A DNA stretch of 64,000 nucleotides, from the NCBI RefSeq assembly GCF_003790525.1, contig NZ_CP033635.1, one strand, 5' to 3'. The DNA is from Escherichia coli (GTDB lineage Bacteria; Pseudomonadota; Gammaproteobacteria; Enterobacterales; Enterobacteriaceae). Position 1 is the first letter of the stretch. Each line of letters opens with the position of its first letter. A program made the translations under genes and the position numbers. Positions 12,231 to 44,910 of this stretch are shown piece after piece. The notes beneath the pieces were generated by a model. The model was not told the origin of the DNA and made no database searches. It was given only the letters and a program-made list of their open reading frames with translations.

Positions 12231-13364
12231 TCAAAACGAAGCTAATTGACCCTGAATCCAGATTTGTTGCACATGCAGCCCGCTATCCAGCGCAACGACG
12301 CTGGCGCGTTTGCCCGGTTTAAGCGATCCCAGAACACCATCAACACCCAGCATACGCGCCGGATGCAGCGATGCCATATGGATGGCTTCCGCAGGCGTTA
12401 CGCCCGTCAACTCGACCATGTTGCGCACTGCCGCATCGACAGACAGCGTACTGCCCGCCAGCCCACCGGACGCGGTACGGACAACGCCATCGTGCATCTG
12501 CACTTCTTCACCACATAACGTATAGCGACCATCCGGCATCCCGGCTGCCTGCATCGCGTCGGTGATCAGCACGATTCTCTCTTTCGCACAGCAACAACAC
12601 AGCGACATCGCCGCCGGATGTACATGATGACCATCGGCTATCAGTTCCAGCCAGGCGCGCTTGTCCGTTAATCCCGCGCCAACCATCCCCGGTTCGCGGT
12701 GATGTAAACCTGTCATCCCGTTATAGCAATGCACCAGGCCGTCGGCACCAGCGTCAAACGCGGCACGGGTTTGTTGCCAGGTCGCCGCGCTATGCCCCAG
12801 CATCACCCGTACGTTTTGCTGTTTAAGATAGCGGATGGCCTGCAATGCCCCTTCTTTTTCTGGTGCCAGCGCTACTACGCGCAAGGTGTGCTGAGAAACG
12901 GCAATCAATTGATCCAGCTCGGCAATTTCCAGCTCGCGAAACAGCTCCGGCGGATGCGCGCCTTTATTCTGCGGCGTGAAGTACGGTCCTTCGAGATAAC
13001 TCCCCAGCACTTGCGCACCAGGTCCGCCACGCTGGCAGCGTAGAGCAATACGTTTCAGCGCCGCATGAATGGTATTAAGCGGCGCGGTTACGGTGGTCGG
13101 TAACCAACTGCCGACACCTTCGCGTGCCTTGTGCATTGCCAGCTTGTCGAGCGCATCCGGCGCATCATCCATTACATCAACGCCCGCACCACCGTGTACA
13201 TGGGTGTCGATGTAAGCGGGACAGAGCAGTTCCGCATCGCGTTCAGTCACGCCCACTGGAATCGGTTCGATTGCTGCGATTACACCGTCAGCAATACGCA
13301 ACTGATGGTCATCGAGCCATCCCTCTTCAGTCAGCAGCCTTCTGGCGCGCAGAACGTGTGTCAT
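12231..13364 (-). CDS. agaA: N-acetylgalactosamine-6-phosphate deacetylase AgaA, full length (377 aa)
   Basis: ORF 12231-13385 trimmed to MTHVLRARRLLTEEGWLDDHQL; NagA-like amidohydrolase; intact, unlike the truncated K-12 allele. Confidence 0.9.
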   Translation of the reverse strand: MTHVLRARRLLTEEGWLDDHQLRIADGVIAAIEPIPVGVTERDAELLCPAYIDTHVHGGAGVDVMDDAPDALDKLAMHKAREGVGSWLPTTVTAPLNTIHAALKRIALRCQRGGPGAQVLGSYLEGPYFTPQNKGAHPPELFRELEIAELDQLIAVSQHTLRVVALAPEKEGALQAIRYLKQQNVRVMLGHSAATWQQTRAAFDAGADGLVHCYNGMTGLHHREPGMVGAGLTDKRAWLELIADGHHVHPAAMSLCCCCAKERIVLITDAMQAAGMPDGRYTLCGEEVQMHDGVVRTASGGLAGSTLSVDAAVRNMVELTGVTPAEAIHMASLHPARMLGVDGVLGSLKPGKRASVVALDSGLHVQQIWIQGQLASF

Positions 13365-13795
13365 ATTCCTTCCTCGACCGGACATTCCTCATGGCAGCGA
13401 CCAAGTTCGTCCACCAGACTGGTTAGCCCACGGTGTCCACACTCCAGCGCCTGCACACGGAACTCTTCACCGCTTAACCCTTCGCGTTCCAGCACCATTT
13501 CCAGTAATAGTTGCAAATTTGTGCCGGTGATCACTTCACAGCCCGGTTTTTGCATCGCCAGCGTTGAAGCTACGCGAAACGGCGTGCCGCCCAGCAAATC
13601 CGTCAGAAAAACAATGCCGTCTTCACAATCCAGTTGGACGATGGCCTCTTCAAGCTGCGATGTAAGCAGCGCGGTGCTTGAGGTTTCCGGAAAATCGATG
13701 GCGATAAACTGCGATTGCTCACCGAGAATTTGCTTCATTGCTTTTTCCATGCCGCTGGCAAATCCGCCATGCCCTGTCAAAATAATACTTAACAT
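13361..13795 (-). CDS. agaF: PTS N-acetylgalactosamine-specific EIIA component AgaF (144 aa)
   Basis: MLSIILTGHGGFASGMEKAMKQILG (mannose-family IIA); 4-bp overlap with the agaA start. Confidence 0.9.
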   Translation of the reverse strand: MLSIILTGHGGFASGMEKAMKQILGEQSQFIAIDFPETSSTALLTSQLEEAIVQLDCEDGIVFLTDLLGGTPFRVASTLAMQKPGCEVITGTNLQLLLEMVLEREGLSGEEFRVQALECGHRGLTSLVDELGRCHEECPVEEGI

Positions 13796-13812
13796 CTAAT
13801 ACCTCATTGTAT

Positions 13813-14697
13813 TTAAAGGAAATGGCAGAATTTACCGACGATGCCGAGAACCACGGTAACCGCAATCAGGCGCAGCGGACTCCAGCCGCGGCGTACCAGC
13901 CAGAACATGGTCAGGGTGTAGACCAGCGGTAAGAAGGCTGGCATCAGTTTGTCGATAACATCAGCCTGTAACTTAACCACTGCGTCGCCCGCGGTGATTT
14001 CCAGCGTGGTGCTTAAACGAACATAGGTTGCCACCAGCGCGCCGATTACCGTCATCCCAACGATAGATGCCGCATGGCCGACTTTTTTGGTATTTGCTTT
14101 AATGAGTGGAATCGCCGCCACGCCCATGCGGTAAGCATAATGCGCCAGACCAAAACGCAGCCCCAGGTGCACCACGTTGAACAGCACAATAAAGACGACA
14201 GCGCCAAGAATAGAGCCTTGTAGCGCGAGGCTTGCACCTATCCCGCCACAAATCGGCAGTAGCGTTAGCCAGAACATCGCATCGCCAATCCCGCCGAGCG
14301 GCGCACCGACGGCAATTTTGGTGCTCTGAATACTGTTAACGTCCTGCTTAGAACGCTCCATCGCAAGGATAATGCCGATAACAAACGTCACCAGAAACGG
14401 ATGGGTATTGAAGAAACCCATATGCCCCTTCATGGCGCGCGCCAGGTCGCGTTTATTAGTGTGGATCTTTTTCAGAGCAGGCAGCAGACCGTACAACCAG
14501 CCAGAAGCCTGCATACGTTCGTAGTTAAAAGACGCTTGTAACAGCATGGAACGCCAGGCGACGCGGTTGATATCTTTTTTCGTCAGCTCTGCGCCAATGC
14601 TCTGATCTTCATACACGTTTTCATTGACACCTGTCAGCAGTGTTTCTTCGTTTTCACTGACGTTCGGCAGGGTAGTTTGATTAGATGCCATCTTCAA
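13813..14697 (-). CDS. agaE: PTS N-acetylgalactosamine-specific EIID component AgaE
   Basis: ORF 294 aa; ...RVAWRSMLLQASFNYERMQASG IID signature; paralogue of AgaD. Confidence 0.9.
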   Translation of the reverse strand: MKMASNQTTLPNVSENEETLLTGVNENVYEDQSIGAELTKKDINRVAWRSMLLQASFNYERMQASGWLYGLLPALKKIHTNKRDLARAMKGHMGFFNTHPFLVTFVIGIILAMERSKQDVNSIQSTKIAVGAPLGGIGDAMFWLTLLPICGGIGASLALQGSILGAVVFIVLFNVVHLGLRFGLAHYAYRMGVAAIPLIKANTKKVGHAASIVGMTVIGALVATYVRLSTTLEITAGDAVVKLQADVIDKLMPAFLPLVYTLTMFWLVRRGWSPLRLIAVTVVLGIVGKFCHFL

Positions 14698-15460
14698 ATT
14701 CCTCTTTCTGTGCCGCAGGTTGAGTCGGTTCAGGAGATTTACGCAGCAAGTCGATCAGCGCCATCGCCAGCGCGGCGGCAGCAATAGCCAGCACCGGTAA
14801 CTTGAGCCAGGCTGCGGCAACAAAGCCCAGGATGAAGTAGGGGATGTAGACGTTTTTCATCATGATTTTCAGCAGCACGGCAAAACCGATTGCTGGCATG
14901 ATGCCACCCGCGACGCCGAGGCCGTCGATTAATCGTTGCGGCAGGACATCAATGATGGTTTTGGCATGTTCTGCGCCGAAGTAGATAGGCAGGAAAGCGC
15001 AGAGAAAATAGAACGTGCCGAGTGCCAGCAATGCCAGATAGTTCACGCGTTCAATGCCGCGAGTATCGGCGTTCTCCGCCATCCGGTCGCAGCGGGACAT
15101 CACGCCGGACATCACCGAGAACAGGAAGGTAATCCCCATCTGTACTGCGACAGCGAAAGGTACGGCGACACCGACCGCGACATCCGGTTTCACGCCAGTA
15201 GTAATGGCAAACGCCGTGCCGACGATAGTACCGATAATCACGTTAGGCGGTTGTGCGCCTGCCAGCGGGGCCAGCCCCATCCACACCAGTTCCAGCGTAC
15301 CGCCGGTTAAAATACCGGTATGCAGATCGCCAAGTACCAGTCCGACCAACGGGCCGAGGACCACCGGGCGGTGCATATGGGTTAGGCCGTTAAACATATC
15401 CAGGCCAGCGATAAAGGCGATAATGCCCAACGCGAATGCCTGCAACAGACTGATTTCCAT
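14681..15460 (-). CDS. agaW: PTS N-acetylgalactosamine-specific EIIC component AgaW, full length (259 aa)
   Basis: ORF 259 aa, IIC paralogue of AgaC; intact here. Confidence 0.9.
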   Translation of the reverse strand: MEISLLQAFALGIIAFIAGLDMFNGLTHMHRPVVLGPLVGLVLGDLHTGILTGGTLELVWMGLAPLAGAQPPNVIIGTIVGTAFAITTGVKPDVAVGVAVPFAVAVQMGITFLFSVMSGVMSRCDRMAENADTRGIERVNYLALLALGTFYFLCAFLPIYFGAEHAKTIIDVLPQRLIDGLGVAGGIMPAIGFAVLLKIMMKNVYIPYFILGFVAAAWLKLPVLAIAAAALAMALIDLLRKSPEPTQPAAQKEEFEDGI

Positions 15461-17495: not shown

Positions 17496-18305
17496 ATGAG
17501 TAATACCGACGCTTCAGGTGAGAAGCGAATGACAGGCACCAGCGAGCGACGAGAACAGATCATTCAGCGTCTGCGACAGCAAGGGAGTGTGCAGGTTAAC
17601 GATCTGTCGGCATTGTATGGCGTATCTACTGTGACGATCCGCAACGATCTGGCGTTTCTGGAAAAGCAGGGGATCGCTGTGCGTGCCTATGGTGGCGCGT
17701 TGATCTGCGATAGCACAACGCCGTCAGTCGAGCCATCAGTGGAAGATAAAAGCGCACTGAACACCGCGATGAAACGCAGCGTTGCGAAAGCTGCCGTTGA
17801 GTTGATTCAGCCTGGTCATCGGGTGATCCTCGACTCCGGGACCACCACTTTTGAGATTGCTCGTCTGATGCGCAAGCACACCGACGTAATTGCGATGACC
17901 AACGGTATGAACGTGGCTAATGCGTTGCTGGAAGCGGAAGGCGTTGAGCTGCTGATGACCGGGGGGCATTTGCGCCGTCAGTCGCAATCTTTTTACGGTG
18001 ATCAGGCTGAGCAATCGCTGCAAAATTACCACTTCGATATGCTGTTTCTTGGTGTAGATGCGATCGATCTGGAGCGCGGCGTCAGCACGCATAATGAAGA
18101 TGAAGCCCGTTTAAACCGTCGGATGTGCGAAGTTGCGGAACGGATCATCGTGGTCACCGATTCCAGTAAGTTCAACCGTTCCAGTTTACATAAGATCATT
18201 GATACTCAACGTATCGACATGATCATTGTTGATGAAGGCATTCCTGCGGATAGTCTGGAAGGACTGCGAAAGGCTGGGGTTGAAGTGATTCTGGTCGGGG
18301 AGTGA
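17496..18305 (+). CDS. agaR: DeoR-family transcriptional repressor AgaR of the aga regulon (269 aa)
   Basis: N-terminal HTH (..[26 protein letters not shown]..) and DeoR C-terminal sugar-phosphate-binding domain. Confidence 0.93.
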
Positions 18306-18311
18306 GAAAGG

Positions 18312-18347
18312 GTGCCCGCTGGTCAACACGAATGCGTTCGGCGGGCA
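18312..18347. terminator. Hairpin between the convergent agaR and yhaV genes (bidirectional terminator)
   Basis: tgcccgctggtcaacacgaatgcgttcggcgggca inverted repeat. Confidence 0.6.
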
Positions 18348-18359
18348 TTGTGAACACCA

Positions 18360-18824
18360 TCAATGGGTTTCTTCTGTCTCTCGGGTGAGGGTTTCCCAGT
18401 CGGCAGGAGGATGTCCTCTTTTTAACATTTTGCTGAATACGGTATAGGCATCTGTTTTTTTACCGTAGGTGCGCAGCGTGTTTTCATCGTTCATCCATCC
18501 CAGAATGATGACTTTCTCTTTTTCACTATAACGAAAGAAGAGACGATAACGACCAGCACCAAATTTTACCCGTGACCAGTCTTTATTTTTCCCAGAGCCT
18601 AACGACTTGCCATGACGGAATGCCGGTGATGATGGATTGACCGTGATATGCTCCTCAATCACTTTATGGACTACCGCCAATAACTTTGTGGCGGCTTTTC
18701 TCTGATAATTTTCAGGATCTTTTCCCTTTAATGTCTCGACTTCGGCAACTAAAGCGTCGTAGGTTTCCTGAAAACAGGGATGAGCATATAGCGCCCAACC
18801 ATTAACCCTTTGTGGAAAATCCAT
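18360..18824 (-). CDS. yhaV: Type II toxin YhaV (ribosome-dependent mRNA interferase, 154 aa)
   Basis: ORF 154 aa directly downstream of prlF with overlapping stop/start. Confidence 0.9.
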   Translation of the reverse strand: MDFPQRVNGWALYAHPCFQETYDALVAEVETLKGKDPENYQRKAATKLLAVVHKVIEEHITVNPSSPAFRHGKSLGSGKNKDWSRVKFGAGRYRLFFRYSEKEKVIILGWMNDENTLRTYGKKTDAYTVFSKMLKRGHPPADWETLTRETEETH

Positions 18825-19159
18825 TATTCGTCGTCGCCAATCTCATCGTCAATGTTGACGTCCATGCCAGCGACAAGTTTCTTTCCTTGTTGAGTGTCGA
18901 ATGGACGAGTTTTTTGCGGGTTGTTCTGGATATCTGCATCCAGAAAACGCAAAAATGCATTCATAGTATGATCCTCCTGTTCATCTCCCAGTCGGCACAT
19001 AAATACTTGCCCACCAGGCAGAATTTCGTAATGAATGCTGTCCAGGCCTGGCTTCAGTTTTAAGGCCTCACGCACTGGCGCGGGGATAGTTGTTTGTCCG
19101 CGTATCGTGACCTTTGATTCAGTGGTCAGTACAGCGTTAGAGCGAGCATTAGCGGGCAT
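18824..19159 (-). CDS. prlF: Antitoxin PrlF/SohA (AbrB/SpoVT-like swapped-hairpin fold, 111 aa)
   Basis: MPANARSNAVLTTESKVTIRGQTTIPAPVREALKLKPG...; acidic C-terminus IDDEIGDDE. Confidence 0.9.
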   Translation of the reverse strand: MPANARSNAVLTTESKVTIRGQTTIPAPVREALKLKPGLDSIHYEILPGGQVFMCRLGDEQEDHTMNAFLRFLDADIQNNPQKTRPFDTQQGKKLVAGMDVNIDDEIGDDE

Positions 19160-19307
19160 TATTTACTGTCCTTTTACAGCCTGTTTTCTGCTCAAATTAT
19201 AAGCTTGAACTAAGGTAATGCAAATGCATTATTAATGGATGTGTGGACTTTAAACAATAAAAACATGGCACTAAGGCCATGTTTTGCGAGGGACGTTCCA
19301 AAAGAAA

Positions 19308-20879
19308 TCAGGTCACCGGTGCTGGGTTAAACACCGCCAGCTGGTTATGCAGTCCCCATTGATCCGAGAAAGTTTTCTTCTTCCCGCTGGCGACGTCGAG
19401 AATAAAGTGGAACAACTTCCAGCCCACTTCTTCAATGGTTTCTTCGCCGGTAGCGATAGTGCCCGCGTTAATATCCATTAAATCAAACCAGCGGTTCGCC
19501 AGCTCGGTGCGGGTCGCCATTTTAATGACCGGTACCGCCATCAGGCCGTACGGCGTACCACGACCGGTCGTAAACACTTGCACAGTGATACCCGAAGCCA
19601 CCTGTTGCGTGCCACAGACAAAATCGCTGGCTGGCGTCGCGGCGTAAATTAATCCGCGTTTAGTCGGGCGTTGGCCGGGCGACAGCACTTCAACAATTGC
19701 ACTTTTACCCGATTTAGCAATGGAGCCGAGCGCTTTCTCCACCACATTTGCCAGACCGCCTTTCTTGTTGCCCGGCGAAGGGTTGGCGCTGCGGTCGGTT
19801 TTTCCCATATTGAGATAGTTATCGTACCACTCCATCTCCTCCAGCAGCCGTTTGCCGACCTCTTCGTTCACTGCGCGTGGTGTCAGCAGATGGATCGCGT
19901 CACGCACTTCCGTGACTTCTGAAAACATCACCGTTGCGCCGCAGCGCACCAGTAGATCAGACGCATACCCAACCGCCGGGTTTGCCGTTACGCCAGAAAA
20001 CGCATCGCTGCCACCGCACTGCATGCCGACAACCAGTTCTGAAGCCGGACAGGTTTCTCGCTGTCGTTGATTCAGTTTGTGCAAATGGCGTTCGGCGACC
20101 TGCAAAATATCCTCGACCATGGACTGAAAGCCGACATGCTTTTCATCCTGCAAACTGACAATGCTGGCGCTTTCTACTGGAATAGCTTGCACATCATCCG
20201 TTCCAGTCAGCAGGCGCTCAGGCTGCAACTTTTCACAACCCAGACCAATCACCATTACTTCGCCGCCAAAGTTAGGGTTCAGCGAAATATTGTGGATGGT
20301 ACGAATAGGCACAACTGCCGCCGGTGCGTTAATCGCCACGCCACAGCCGTACAAATGATTCAGCCCCACCACGCCATCGACGTTCGGGTATTTCGGTAGC
20401 AGATCGCGTTCAATGATTTTTACTACATAGTCCACCACGCCTGCTACACAGTGGACGCTGGTGGTGATGCCGAGCAGGTTTTTAGTGCCCACGCTGCCAT
20501 CGGCATTGCGATAGCCCTCAAAGGTGTATCCTTCCAGCGGCGGTAAGGGTTCCGGGACTTTGGTTGCCAGTGGCAGCGTGTGTAACGGCGGCGCTTCCGG
20601 TAGTACAACCATTGATTCGTCGATCCAGCTTCCGCGTGGGATTGCGCGCACGGCGTAACCAATCACTTCGCCATAACGAATAATTTCACCATTAGCTGGA
20701 ATGTCCAGCAATGCGACTTTATGCCCCTGGGGAATATGTTCAATTAATTCCAGCCCATCCGGAAAACGCGTTCCTGCTTTCAGGCCATTATCATTAACAA
20801 TAATTGCCACATTATCTGTGTCGTGAACTTTTATATAAAACGCAGTTGGCGTTTCTTGTCTGATTTCGATGTTGGCCAT
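19308..20879 (-). CDS. garD: Galactarate dehydratase GarD (523 aa)
   Basis: [39 protein letters not shown]... SAF-domain N-terminus; divergent from garPLRK. Confidence 0.93.
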
Positions 20880-44794: not shown

Positions 44795-44910
44795 CGCAAA
44801 ACTGCCTGATGCGCTATGCTTATCAGGCCTACGAGGTTTCTGCAATGTATTGAATTTGCATGTTTTTGTAGGCCGGATAAGGCGTTCACGCCGCATCCGG
44901 CATGAACAAC
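44795..44910. repeat. Second BIME/RIP-like composite REP element, paralogous to the one at 43590-43700
   Basis: ...gcctgatgcgctatgcttatcaggcctacg...ttgaatttgcatgtttttgtaggccggataaggcgttcacgccgcatccggca. Confidence 0.75.

Follow-up and report, generated by a model that had tools for sequence, protein, structure and literature searches.

The closest described system is the prlF(sohA)-yhaV pair of E. coli K-12 (b3129-b3130), reportedly characterized by Schmidt et al. in 2007 (J Mol Biol 372:894). K-12 YhaV is reported to be a toxic, ribosome-dependent mRNA endonuclease that is neutralized by PrlF (PMC7781912, PMC8546651, PMC11980606, citing Schmidt 2007 and Choi 2017). Cleavage shows a subcodon bias, a 5' preference and a downstream G, as it does with RelE and HigB (PMC8546651, PMC11980606), which likewise cut ribosome-bound mRNA with a reported downstream-G preference (PMC8546651). 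The ribosome dependence of YhaV is disputed (PMC8546651, Table 1), and earlier in vitro work claimed ribosome-independent cleavage (PMC5408214). Replacement of two conserved arginines abolishes the activity (reviews, PMC5408214). Both genes are carried on a single transcript (PMC12107188, PMC5535158), and the operon is repressed by PrlF with YhaV (PMC12107188). A PrlF2-YhaV4 complex binds the prlF promoter palindrome, cooperatively as a dimer of hexamers (PMC7781912, citing Schmidt 2007). Toxicity, neutralization, ribosome dependence, DNA binding, autorepression and the link to the Lon protease are taken here from this literature on K-12; gene identities, predicted folds, operon anatomy and the family-wide conservation of the operator come from the present analysis.

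A prlF-yhaV pair lies on the minus strand of the window, the whole 64,000-nucleotide stretch of E. coli DNA that was analysed.

18824..19159, minus strand: prlF (sohA), 111 aa, antitoxin and autorepressor (ORF table, Pfam and NCBIfam)
18360..18824, minus strand: yhaV, 154 aa, toxin, predicted RelE/ParE-superfamily endoribonuclease (ORF table and Pfam)

The initial annotation had placed ORFs of 111 and 154 aa at 18360-19159, between the aga and gar loci, and did not give the strand. The lengths agree exactly with the ORF table, and the pair is flanked by agaR (17496-18305, plus strand) on one side and garD (19308-20879, minus strand) on the other. Failure of similarity searches to support the PrlF and YhaV names had been put forward as the result that would overturn them, and both names held in such searches. 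PrlF matched Pfam PF15937 (E = 2.2e-40, 137.3 bits, cutoff 32) and, over its full length (1-111), the NCBIfam equivalog NF007429 (165.8 bits, cutoff 125). YhaV matched Pfam PF11663 (E = 7.8e-54, 181.9 bits, cutoff 35) across profile positions 1-137 of 138, and the NCBIfam search returned no YhaV model. RefSeq uses the names prlF and yhaV on identical DNA. A 1.2-kb query covering the locus matched the E. coli SC516 chromosome at 100% identity, and the SC516 annotation names the two genes prlF and yhaV; the whole window differs from SC516 by 4 mismatches in its first 39.4 kb and by none in the remainder. Because the family matches far exceed the curated cutoffs and an annotated E. coli chromosome carries identical DNA, the locus is almost certainly the chromosomal prlF-yhaV type II toxin-antitoxin operon of E. 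coli, intact in this strain. The two genes are adjacent and co-oriented, with the antitoxin first and a 1-nt overlap, which is the arrangement of an operon. The recognition of prlF-yhaV was correct, and the system is an already known one in its usual chromosomal place; at least 80% of the 1.2-kb locus was found in 5117 of 5426 complete E. coli genomes.

The pair had also been called the only recognizable toxin-antitoxin pair in the window. This holds as far as the annotation of the near-identical SC516 can tell, with no second pair in the PGAP annotation of the matching sequence. The higBA genes, which lie a few genes further on in the K-12 map, just past the window end, fall outside because the window stops inside ygjQ. 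An Rfam scan of the window returned RNase P RNA, one marginal sRNA match and nothing else.

Over 1.2 kb, the window and K-12 are 98.6% identical. The two loci share the position between agaR and garD, the TAATG junction between the genes, the promoter and the 16-bp operator. They also share YhaV, which equals the K-12 protein (WP_000347273.1) residue for residue, with 2 synonymous differences in the gene. The garD-prlF spacer carries 5 substitutions relative to K-12, all outside the operator and promoter. The prlF gene has 4 non-synonymous changes and 1 synonymous change; the 4 altered residues of 111 (H8N, Q39L, N88D and I89T) are all at variable positions of the family alignment, and the invariant columns are untouched. 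More rapid evolution of the antitoxin was considered from the contrast between prlF (4 non-synonymous and 1 synonymous) and yhaV (0 and 2) and was rejected because the counts are too few (Fisher's exact test, p ~0.14, hand calculation).

The differences in PrlF raise the alternative that the locus is a decayed remnant in which both genes are present and toxin-antitoxin function is gone in this strain. Decay does occur elsewhere: in an O145 strain yhaV is interrupted by a stop at codon 41 and prlF is intact, expansion of a heptamer repeat frameshifts prlF in 13 genomes, and strain 20AR0300 has lost the whole locus through an IS1-associated deletion. In the window, however, both ORFs are full length, YhaV is the same protein that is toxic in K-12, the PrlF changes spare every invariant family column, and the promoter, operator and Shine-Dalgarno sequence are intact. 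Decay of the operon in this strain is highly improbable. The 20AR0300 genome lacks agaR-yhaV-prlF and the entire aga region, and its loss of the locus is a secondary deletion because an IS1 is flanked there by a fimbrial usher gene and garD, both truncated. Foreign origin was also examined by base composition and was not retained: module GC is 46% against a window mean of 50%, yet 16.5% of 800-bp windows are as low. GC3 is 0.41 in yhaV and ~0.57 in the neighbouring genes, which hints only mildly at foreign origin.

The control region of the intact operon occupies the 148-nt spacer between garD and prlF, where four elements follow one another in the direction of prlF transcription.

19260..19285, minus strand: garD intrinsic terminator hairpin, with a T-run after its 10-bp stem; bounds the prlF control region on the upstream side
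19216..19231, no strand assigned: predicted operator, TAATGCA-TT-TGCATTA, a single-copy 16-bp inverted repeat with 7-nt arms and a 2-nt spacer, overlapping the -35 element
19196..19224, minus strand: candidate sigma-70-type promoter, with -35 TTTGCA at 19224-19219, a 17-nt spacer and -10 TATAAT at 19201-19196
19169..19173, minus strand: Shine-Dalgarno-like AAGGA, read from the sequence, 9 nt upstream of the prlF ATG

The promoter candidate matches the consensus at 10 of 12 positions, and its -35 hexamer TTTGCA sits within the inverted repeat. The same promoter sequence is found in K-12. The inverted repeat and the promoter are invariant among this strain, K-12 and O145, and the bases on either side vary.

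Several short palindromes of sequence AATGCATT upstream of prlF had been proposed as autoregulatory operators. The plural was wrong: a single copy is present upstream of prlF (19223-19230), and a second copy lies within the prlF coding sequence (18954-18961). The window contains 4 copies against 3.0 expected, a count reached in 35 of 100 shuffles, so AATGCATT occurs at chance frequency. The octamer proved to be an off-centre part of the 16-bp inverted repeat, whose 14-nt core, AATGCA-NN-TGCATT, occurs exactly once in the 64 kb. The proposal of an autoregulatory operator was right in substance, in that the larger palindrome is kept across the family and binding of the complex is reported (PMC7781912).

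Homologous loci provided the means to judge this element. YhaV homologues of 43-55% identity were found in 328 plasmid records, 175 of them conjugative, and one further homologue was found in a Vibrio prophage-like record. A PrlF-family gene lies immediately upstream of the yhaV homologue in 6 of 7 loci examined; in the Vibrio phage record, an unrelated 64-aa ORF takes the place of prlF, and this locus aside, the antitoxin-first adjacent order is retained throughout the homologous loci examined. Of the 6 prlF-bearing loci, 5 carry the exact core motif upstream of prlF. The Phaeobacter and Bradyrhizobium plasmids have one copy, between a TTGACA and the -10 region; the Pantoea, E. cloacae pECL_B and E. 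fergusonii plasmid loci have two tandem copies; and the Acetobacter locus has a different palindrome upstream of prlF. A reverse test was made by scanning 100,044 species, each represented by one genome, for two tandem operator copies, a pattern of 24 specified bases for which we estimate ~0.004 chance matches. The scan returned 15 sites, and 13 of these are followed directly by correctly oriented prlF and yhaV homologues. At a 14th site, in Buttiauxella, the locus ends just after a PrlF-like MATQFLNS start. The sole exception is an AT-rich Oligoflexia MAG. Across 37 sites, the base to the left of the searched core is a pyrimidine and the base to the right is a purine in every case (37/37), and these outer Y and R positions were outside the search pattern. 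The resulting consensus, YAATGCA-WW-TGCATTR, has the same 16-bp symmetry as the E. coli element.

These data bear on the alternative that the upstream palindrome is no operator, and is instead a chance AT-rich palindrome or a piece of the garD terminator region. In its favor, AATGCATT is no commoner than chance in the window, the AT-rich intergenic DNA holds several 6-bp palindromes, and the garD terminator is only ~30 nt away. The 14-nt core is nonetheless found just once in the 64-kb window, and it recurs upstream of prlF homologues that have no flanking genes or DNA in common with E. coli. In addition, 14 of the 15 double copies in ~100,000 genomes adjoin prlF-yhaV, the unselected flanks extend the symmetry at every site, and binding to the promoter palindrome is reported (PMC7781912). 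A chance or terminator-derived palindrome is thus extremely unlikely. Because the motif recurs upstream of prlF homologues, and on the strength of the reverse test and the flank symmetry, sequence comparison identifies the inverted repeat as a family-wide cis element, in agreement with the report that PrlF-YhaV binds the promoter palindrome.

The number of operators sets E. coli apart from its relatives. Plasmid-borne and other enterobacterial PrlF/YhaV-family pairs, such as those of E. cloacae pECL_B, an E. fergusonii IncI plasmid, Pantoea, Rahnella, Proteus and Providencia, resemble the window in being antitoxin-first, in belonging to the same Pfam families and in carrying the operator motif, and they differ from it at the protein level (39-55% identity). 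They have two tandem operators 17-18 bp apart where the window has one, and one subgroup has a ~180-nt leader between the operators and prlF. A second, degenerate operator was sought in E. coli; none was found near prlF at up to 2 mismatches, and none was seen by eye 17-18 bp from the operator. This strain also has TAATGC half-sites around the start codon, which were dropped as candidates because they are not conserved in K-12. The E. coli sequence offers no obvious explanation for the reported cooperative binding of two hexamers, since the E. coli operator is single and most enterobacterial homologues have two.

Translation of yhaV probably depends on that of prlF. The two genes meet in a TAATG, which reads GAC GAC GAA TAA TG G ATT on the coding strand.

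18822..18826, minus strand: prlF-yhaV junction TAATG, the stop TAA and the start ATG with one common base (18824)

The initial annotation had reported a 4-base overlap; the TAA at 18826-18824 and the ATG at 18824-18822 share 1 base. No clear Shine-Dalgarno sequence is present in the 20 nt before the yhaV ATG (GAGATTGGCGACGACGAATA). This arrangement plausibly reflects termination-reinitiation coupling, with which both the TAATG overlap and the missing Shine-Dalgarno sequence fit. RNA folding around the junction gave no significant structure hiding the yhaV start (z -0.8), so the case for coupling is carried by just these two features. A prlF frameshift is polar on yhaV (PMC12107188), which agrees with coupling; the frameshifted K-12 prlF product would terminate 23 nt upstream of the yhaV ATG, without the conserved acidic tail. 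Predicted translation rates favor PrlF over YhaV (PMC5535158). The TAATG overlap is not family-wide, and junctions in homologous loci run from a 4-nt overlap to a 22-nt gap; in the plasmid and enterobacterial pairs, the genes are 2-22 nt apart or overlap by 4 nt, compared with the 1-nt overlap of the window. An internal promoter-like site ahead of yhaV (18852-18823) was taken as a chance consensus match.

Downstream of yhaV, the search for an intrinsic terminator gave a weak hairpin only, with the T-run missing, and that candidate was rejected.

18313..18347, no strand assigned: GC-rich hairpin TGCCCGC...GCGGGCA, conserved in K-12, within the 54 nt that separate the convergent genes yhaV and agaR

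This hairpin (-20 kcal/mol, z -1.6, without a T-run) could possibly act as a bidirectional terminator, a role to which these values lend weak support.

By its predicted fold, the toxin belongs to a structural class that sequence searches did not reveal. A YhaV sequence search of the PDB found no relatives, and all that the YhaV family profile returned was a set of spurious summed matches to designed PPR repeats, which were discarded. An alignment of 98 diverse homologues, taken from 980 representatives at E <= 0.001, was used for an AlphaFold2 model of YhaV, which had a pLDDT of 96 and a pTM of 0.91. In a Foldseek search of the PDB with this model, the meaningful ranks 1-47 were RelE/ParE-type toxins (PfiT, HigB2, RelE, YoeB and ParE), except for two weak Cami1 chains at ranks 39 and 43. 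The best matches were PfiT (9w3a), HigB2 (5ja8), M. tuberculosis RelE (9g12 and 3g5o) and E. coli RelE (4fxh and 4fxe); the top matches reached probabilities of up to 1.00 and target TM-scores of 0.55-0.79 at no more than 17% sequence identity. On its predicted structure, YhaV is a member of the RelE/ParE (BECR-fold) superfamily. The predicted fold is shared with the toxins of RelBE, HigBA and YefM-YoeB, and there is no detectable sequence similarity between YhaV and the solved RelE-type chains. YhaV is ~60 residues longer than RelE, and the model places an N-terminal beta-hairpin and long helices in the protein. Residues conserved in at least 90% of the 98 homologues are P64, G72, W83, R85, K87, R94, L95, F96, I106, W110, N112 and R118. 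Conservation marks R85, K87, R94 and R118 as candidate active-site residues. The copy of the PDB that was searched holds no solved structure of PrlF, YhaV or a PrlF-YhaV-operator complex. A published review figure shows PDB entry 2KHE as YhaV, and this entry is Thermus RelE.

The antitoxin is of a different type from the usual partners of such toxins. PrlF is AbrB/MazE-like, and in the RelE-fold systems RelB is of the RHH type, HigA of the HTH type and YefM of the Phd/YefM type; prlF-yhaV has been described as a mix-and-match toxin-antitoxin pair (PMC5408214). The predicted layout of PrlF is an N-terminal AbrB/SpoVT-like DNA-binding domain (~residues 13-56) and an acidic C-terminal tail. A PrlF sequence search of the PDB found no relatives. 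A profile built from 9 homologues matched the AbrB-family regulators 5itj, 2l66 and 5itm (E = 1.6e-4 to 1.9e-4) and SpoVT 2w1t (E = 5e-3), and these matches span residues 13-56, aligning with the N-terminal domains of AbrB and SpoVT. The MazE and AbrB models were sub-threshold, with the single PrlF sequence just under the cutoffs of TIGR01439 (26.2, cutoff 28.3) and PF04014 (17.4, cutoff 24.7). The AlphaFold2 model of the PrlF monomer was of low confidence (pLDDT 72, pTM 0.38), with a beta-alpha-beta-beta order compatible with a swapped-hairpin fold, a fold that is formed only by the dimer, and Foldseek with this poor model gave no match at E <= 0.001. Both results would be expected of a domain that folds as an intertwined dimer. 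PrlF differs from MazE in that its partner toxin is RelE-like and not MazF-like, and its C-terminal region is family-specific.

Together, the features of the locus suggest the following scheme. A single promoter, with -35 TTTGCA and -10 TATAAT, would give a bicistronic prlF-yhaV mRNA. The prlF cistron would be read from what appears to be a good ribosome-binding site, and yhaV, seemingly without one, would start on the last base of the prlF stop codon. Translation of yhaV would then probably need ribosomes that finish prlF, which may leave the antitoxin in excess. YhaV, as a predicted RelE/ParE-fold endoribonuclease, would cut mRNA on the ribosome, and PrlF, with its AbrB/SpoVT-like N-terminus and C-terminal part, would neutralize it. 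The PrlF-YhaV complex, bound to the 16-bp inverted repeat over the -35 box, would repress its own operon.

A different emphasis assigns PrlF the main role as a regulator of proteolysis and envelope stress through Lon activation, with YhaV as co-repressor, rather than addiction or growth arrest by the pair. With alleles of the prlF1 type, Lon is hyperactivated, degP and LamB-LacZ jamming phenotypes are suppressed, ompF expression falls and beta-lactam resistance results (PMC12107188, PMC7686311, PMC5408214), and regulation of prlF by CpxR is reported (PMC9600279). The prlF frameshift allele of laboratory strains is present in natural isolates. Also in its favor, no PADLOC anti-phage defense-system family matched PrlF or YhaV at E <= 0.01. 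Set against this, how PrlF is linked to Lon mechanistically is not understood (PMC12107188), the toxicity of YhaV has been demonstrated, and the frequency of family members on conjugative plasmids (175 of the 328 plasmid records) fits a stabilization role for the family. We regard a primary role in proteolysis and envelope stress as possible, if somewhat unlikely. It concerns the role of the operon, not its identity, and is compatible with the toxin-antitoxin scheme given above.

One segment of prlF distinguishes the window allele from that of K-12.

18888..18901, minus strand: heptamer site TTCGACA CTCAACA, prlF nt 259-272; the K-12 hotspot of two TTCAACA copies is broken here

In K-12, prlF nt 259-272 are two perfect tandem TTCAACA copies. 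A recurrent K-12 mutation is the duplication of TTCAACA (7 bp) at prlF nt 272 (PMC7686311, PMC12107188), and the same duplication also arises in the evolution of gallium resistance. The hotspot is disrupted in the window by two substitutions, those of the N88D and I89T codons, and the O145 strain has TTCGACA TTCAACA. Alleles were counted in 5155 genomes that have this prlF segment. The K-12 46-mer was matched at 99% identity or more in 3829 of them (about three quarters), and the window 46-mer in 208 (about 4%). The TTCAACA tract is a natural variable-number repeat, and it is missing from the window allele. PGAP flags a frameshift at all three expanded prlF loci that were inspected (with three, four and seven copies). 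In the searchable literature, change in the tract is known from laboratory evolution only.

Longer tracts were seen in natural isolates. Three TTCAACA copies are present in 11 genomes, from dog, pig, yak, chicken, human and street-pavement isolates (one was checked); four copies are found in strain JNU and seven in strain KSC64.

Slippage could make the tract a switch, possibly a reversible one, that truncates PrlF, derepresses prlF-yhaV, raises Lon activity and alters envelope and antibiotic phenotypes, in which case the window allele would be 'locked' and unable to switch by this route. We consider this doubtful, and the idea of a selected switch is speculative.

Two consequences follow for work on this family. 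The recurrent K-12 prlF mutation needs the heptamer repeat, which varies in natural isolates and is absent here; what K-12 evolution has shown for prlF may therefore not carry over to strains with the window-type allele. The comparison also defines the PrlF operator, as YAATGCA-NN-TGCATTR. Its conservation extends from Enterobacterales to Alphaproteobacteria, with one copy in E. coli and two in most of its enterobacterial relatives, and this sequence can be used for binding and structural work on the PrlF-YhaV complex.

K-12-type prlF contains a perfect tandem repeat of two TTCAACA heptamers, and the 7-bp prlF duplication that recurs in the laboratory maps to this tract (PMC7686311, PMC12107188). 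The site was compared in loci L003, L028, L029 and L030 from other genomes.

18888-18901 (prlF nt 259-272): heptamer tract site

Natural genomes also carry three copies of the heptamer (11 genomes), four (strain JNU) or seven (strain KSC64). The prlF allele in the window, found in ~4% of genomes, reads TTCGACA CTCAACA at this site and has lost the heptamer repeat.

Two further regions were noted. The first is inside prlF, near its 3' end, and runs up to the yhaV start codon; the second is the leader between the double operator and prlF in one plasmid/enterobacterial subgroup (loci L007, L008 and L013).

18823-18852, minus strand: promoter-like TTGACG-18-AATAAT
L007 912-1121, L008 906-1119 and L013 5026-5240: double operator-to-prlF leader

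The promoter-like site could be the source of a leaderless yhaV transcript, but a chance match is the more likely explanation. In the subgroup, the double operator is located ~180 nt upstream of prlF and is directly followed by TATAAT. The leaders have conserved blocks in common, for example CAGCGG.TT.GCAAACCGATAGCTC, and this conservation suggests a possible 5' UTR that is structured or regulatory.

An alignment of YhaV homologues reveals a conserved C-terminal helix motif, kyGsktDAYavFkkMLergnPPd (residues ~118-140). Its summed matches to designed pentatricopeptide-repeat proteins are spurious; no single stretch was significant. A search of PDB chains by sequence for YhaV relatives returned no match. 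PDB 2KHE is captioned 'YhaV monomer' in a review (PMC7781912, Fig. 2E), but the PDB description of this entry is Thermus thermophilus RelE.

Three other features of the window were recorded.

12231-15460: complete aga cluster with agaW, agaE, agaF and the nagA/agaA deacetylase gene all intact
44825-44865, minus strand: marginal Rfam ES036 (CssrF) sRNA hit, 38.4 bits, just over the gathering cutoff of 37.6
49573-54685: four-gene CS1-type chaperone-usher fimbrial operon between exuT and exuR

The fimbrial genes encode a CfaE/CblD-family tip adhesin, a TcfC-like usher, a CS1 major subunit and a chaperone. The operon looks like a strain-variable insertion because exuT and exuR are neighbors without intervening genes in K-12. 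The K-12 aga cluster has a deletion in the corresponding stretch.

In E. coli 20AR0300, agaR, yhaV, prlF and the entire aga cluster are absent, and an IS1 element there is flanked by two truncated genes, garD and a yraJ-like usher gene (L004 7330-10548). This arrangement identifies the missing region as an IS1-associated deletion. E. coli O145 RM10425-C1 has a yhaV pseudogene, interrupted by a stop at codon 41 (L005 461-925), and both prlF and the operator are intact. This locus is a toxin-dead, antitoxin-alive state arising in nature.
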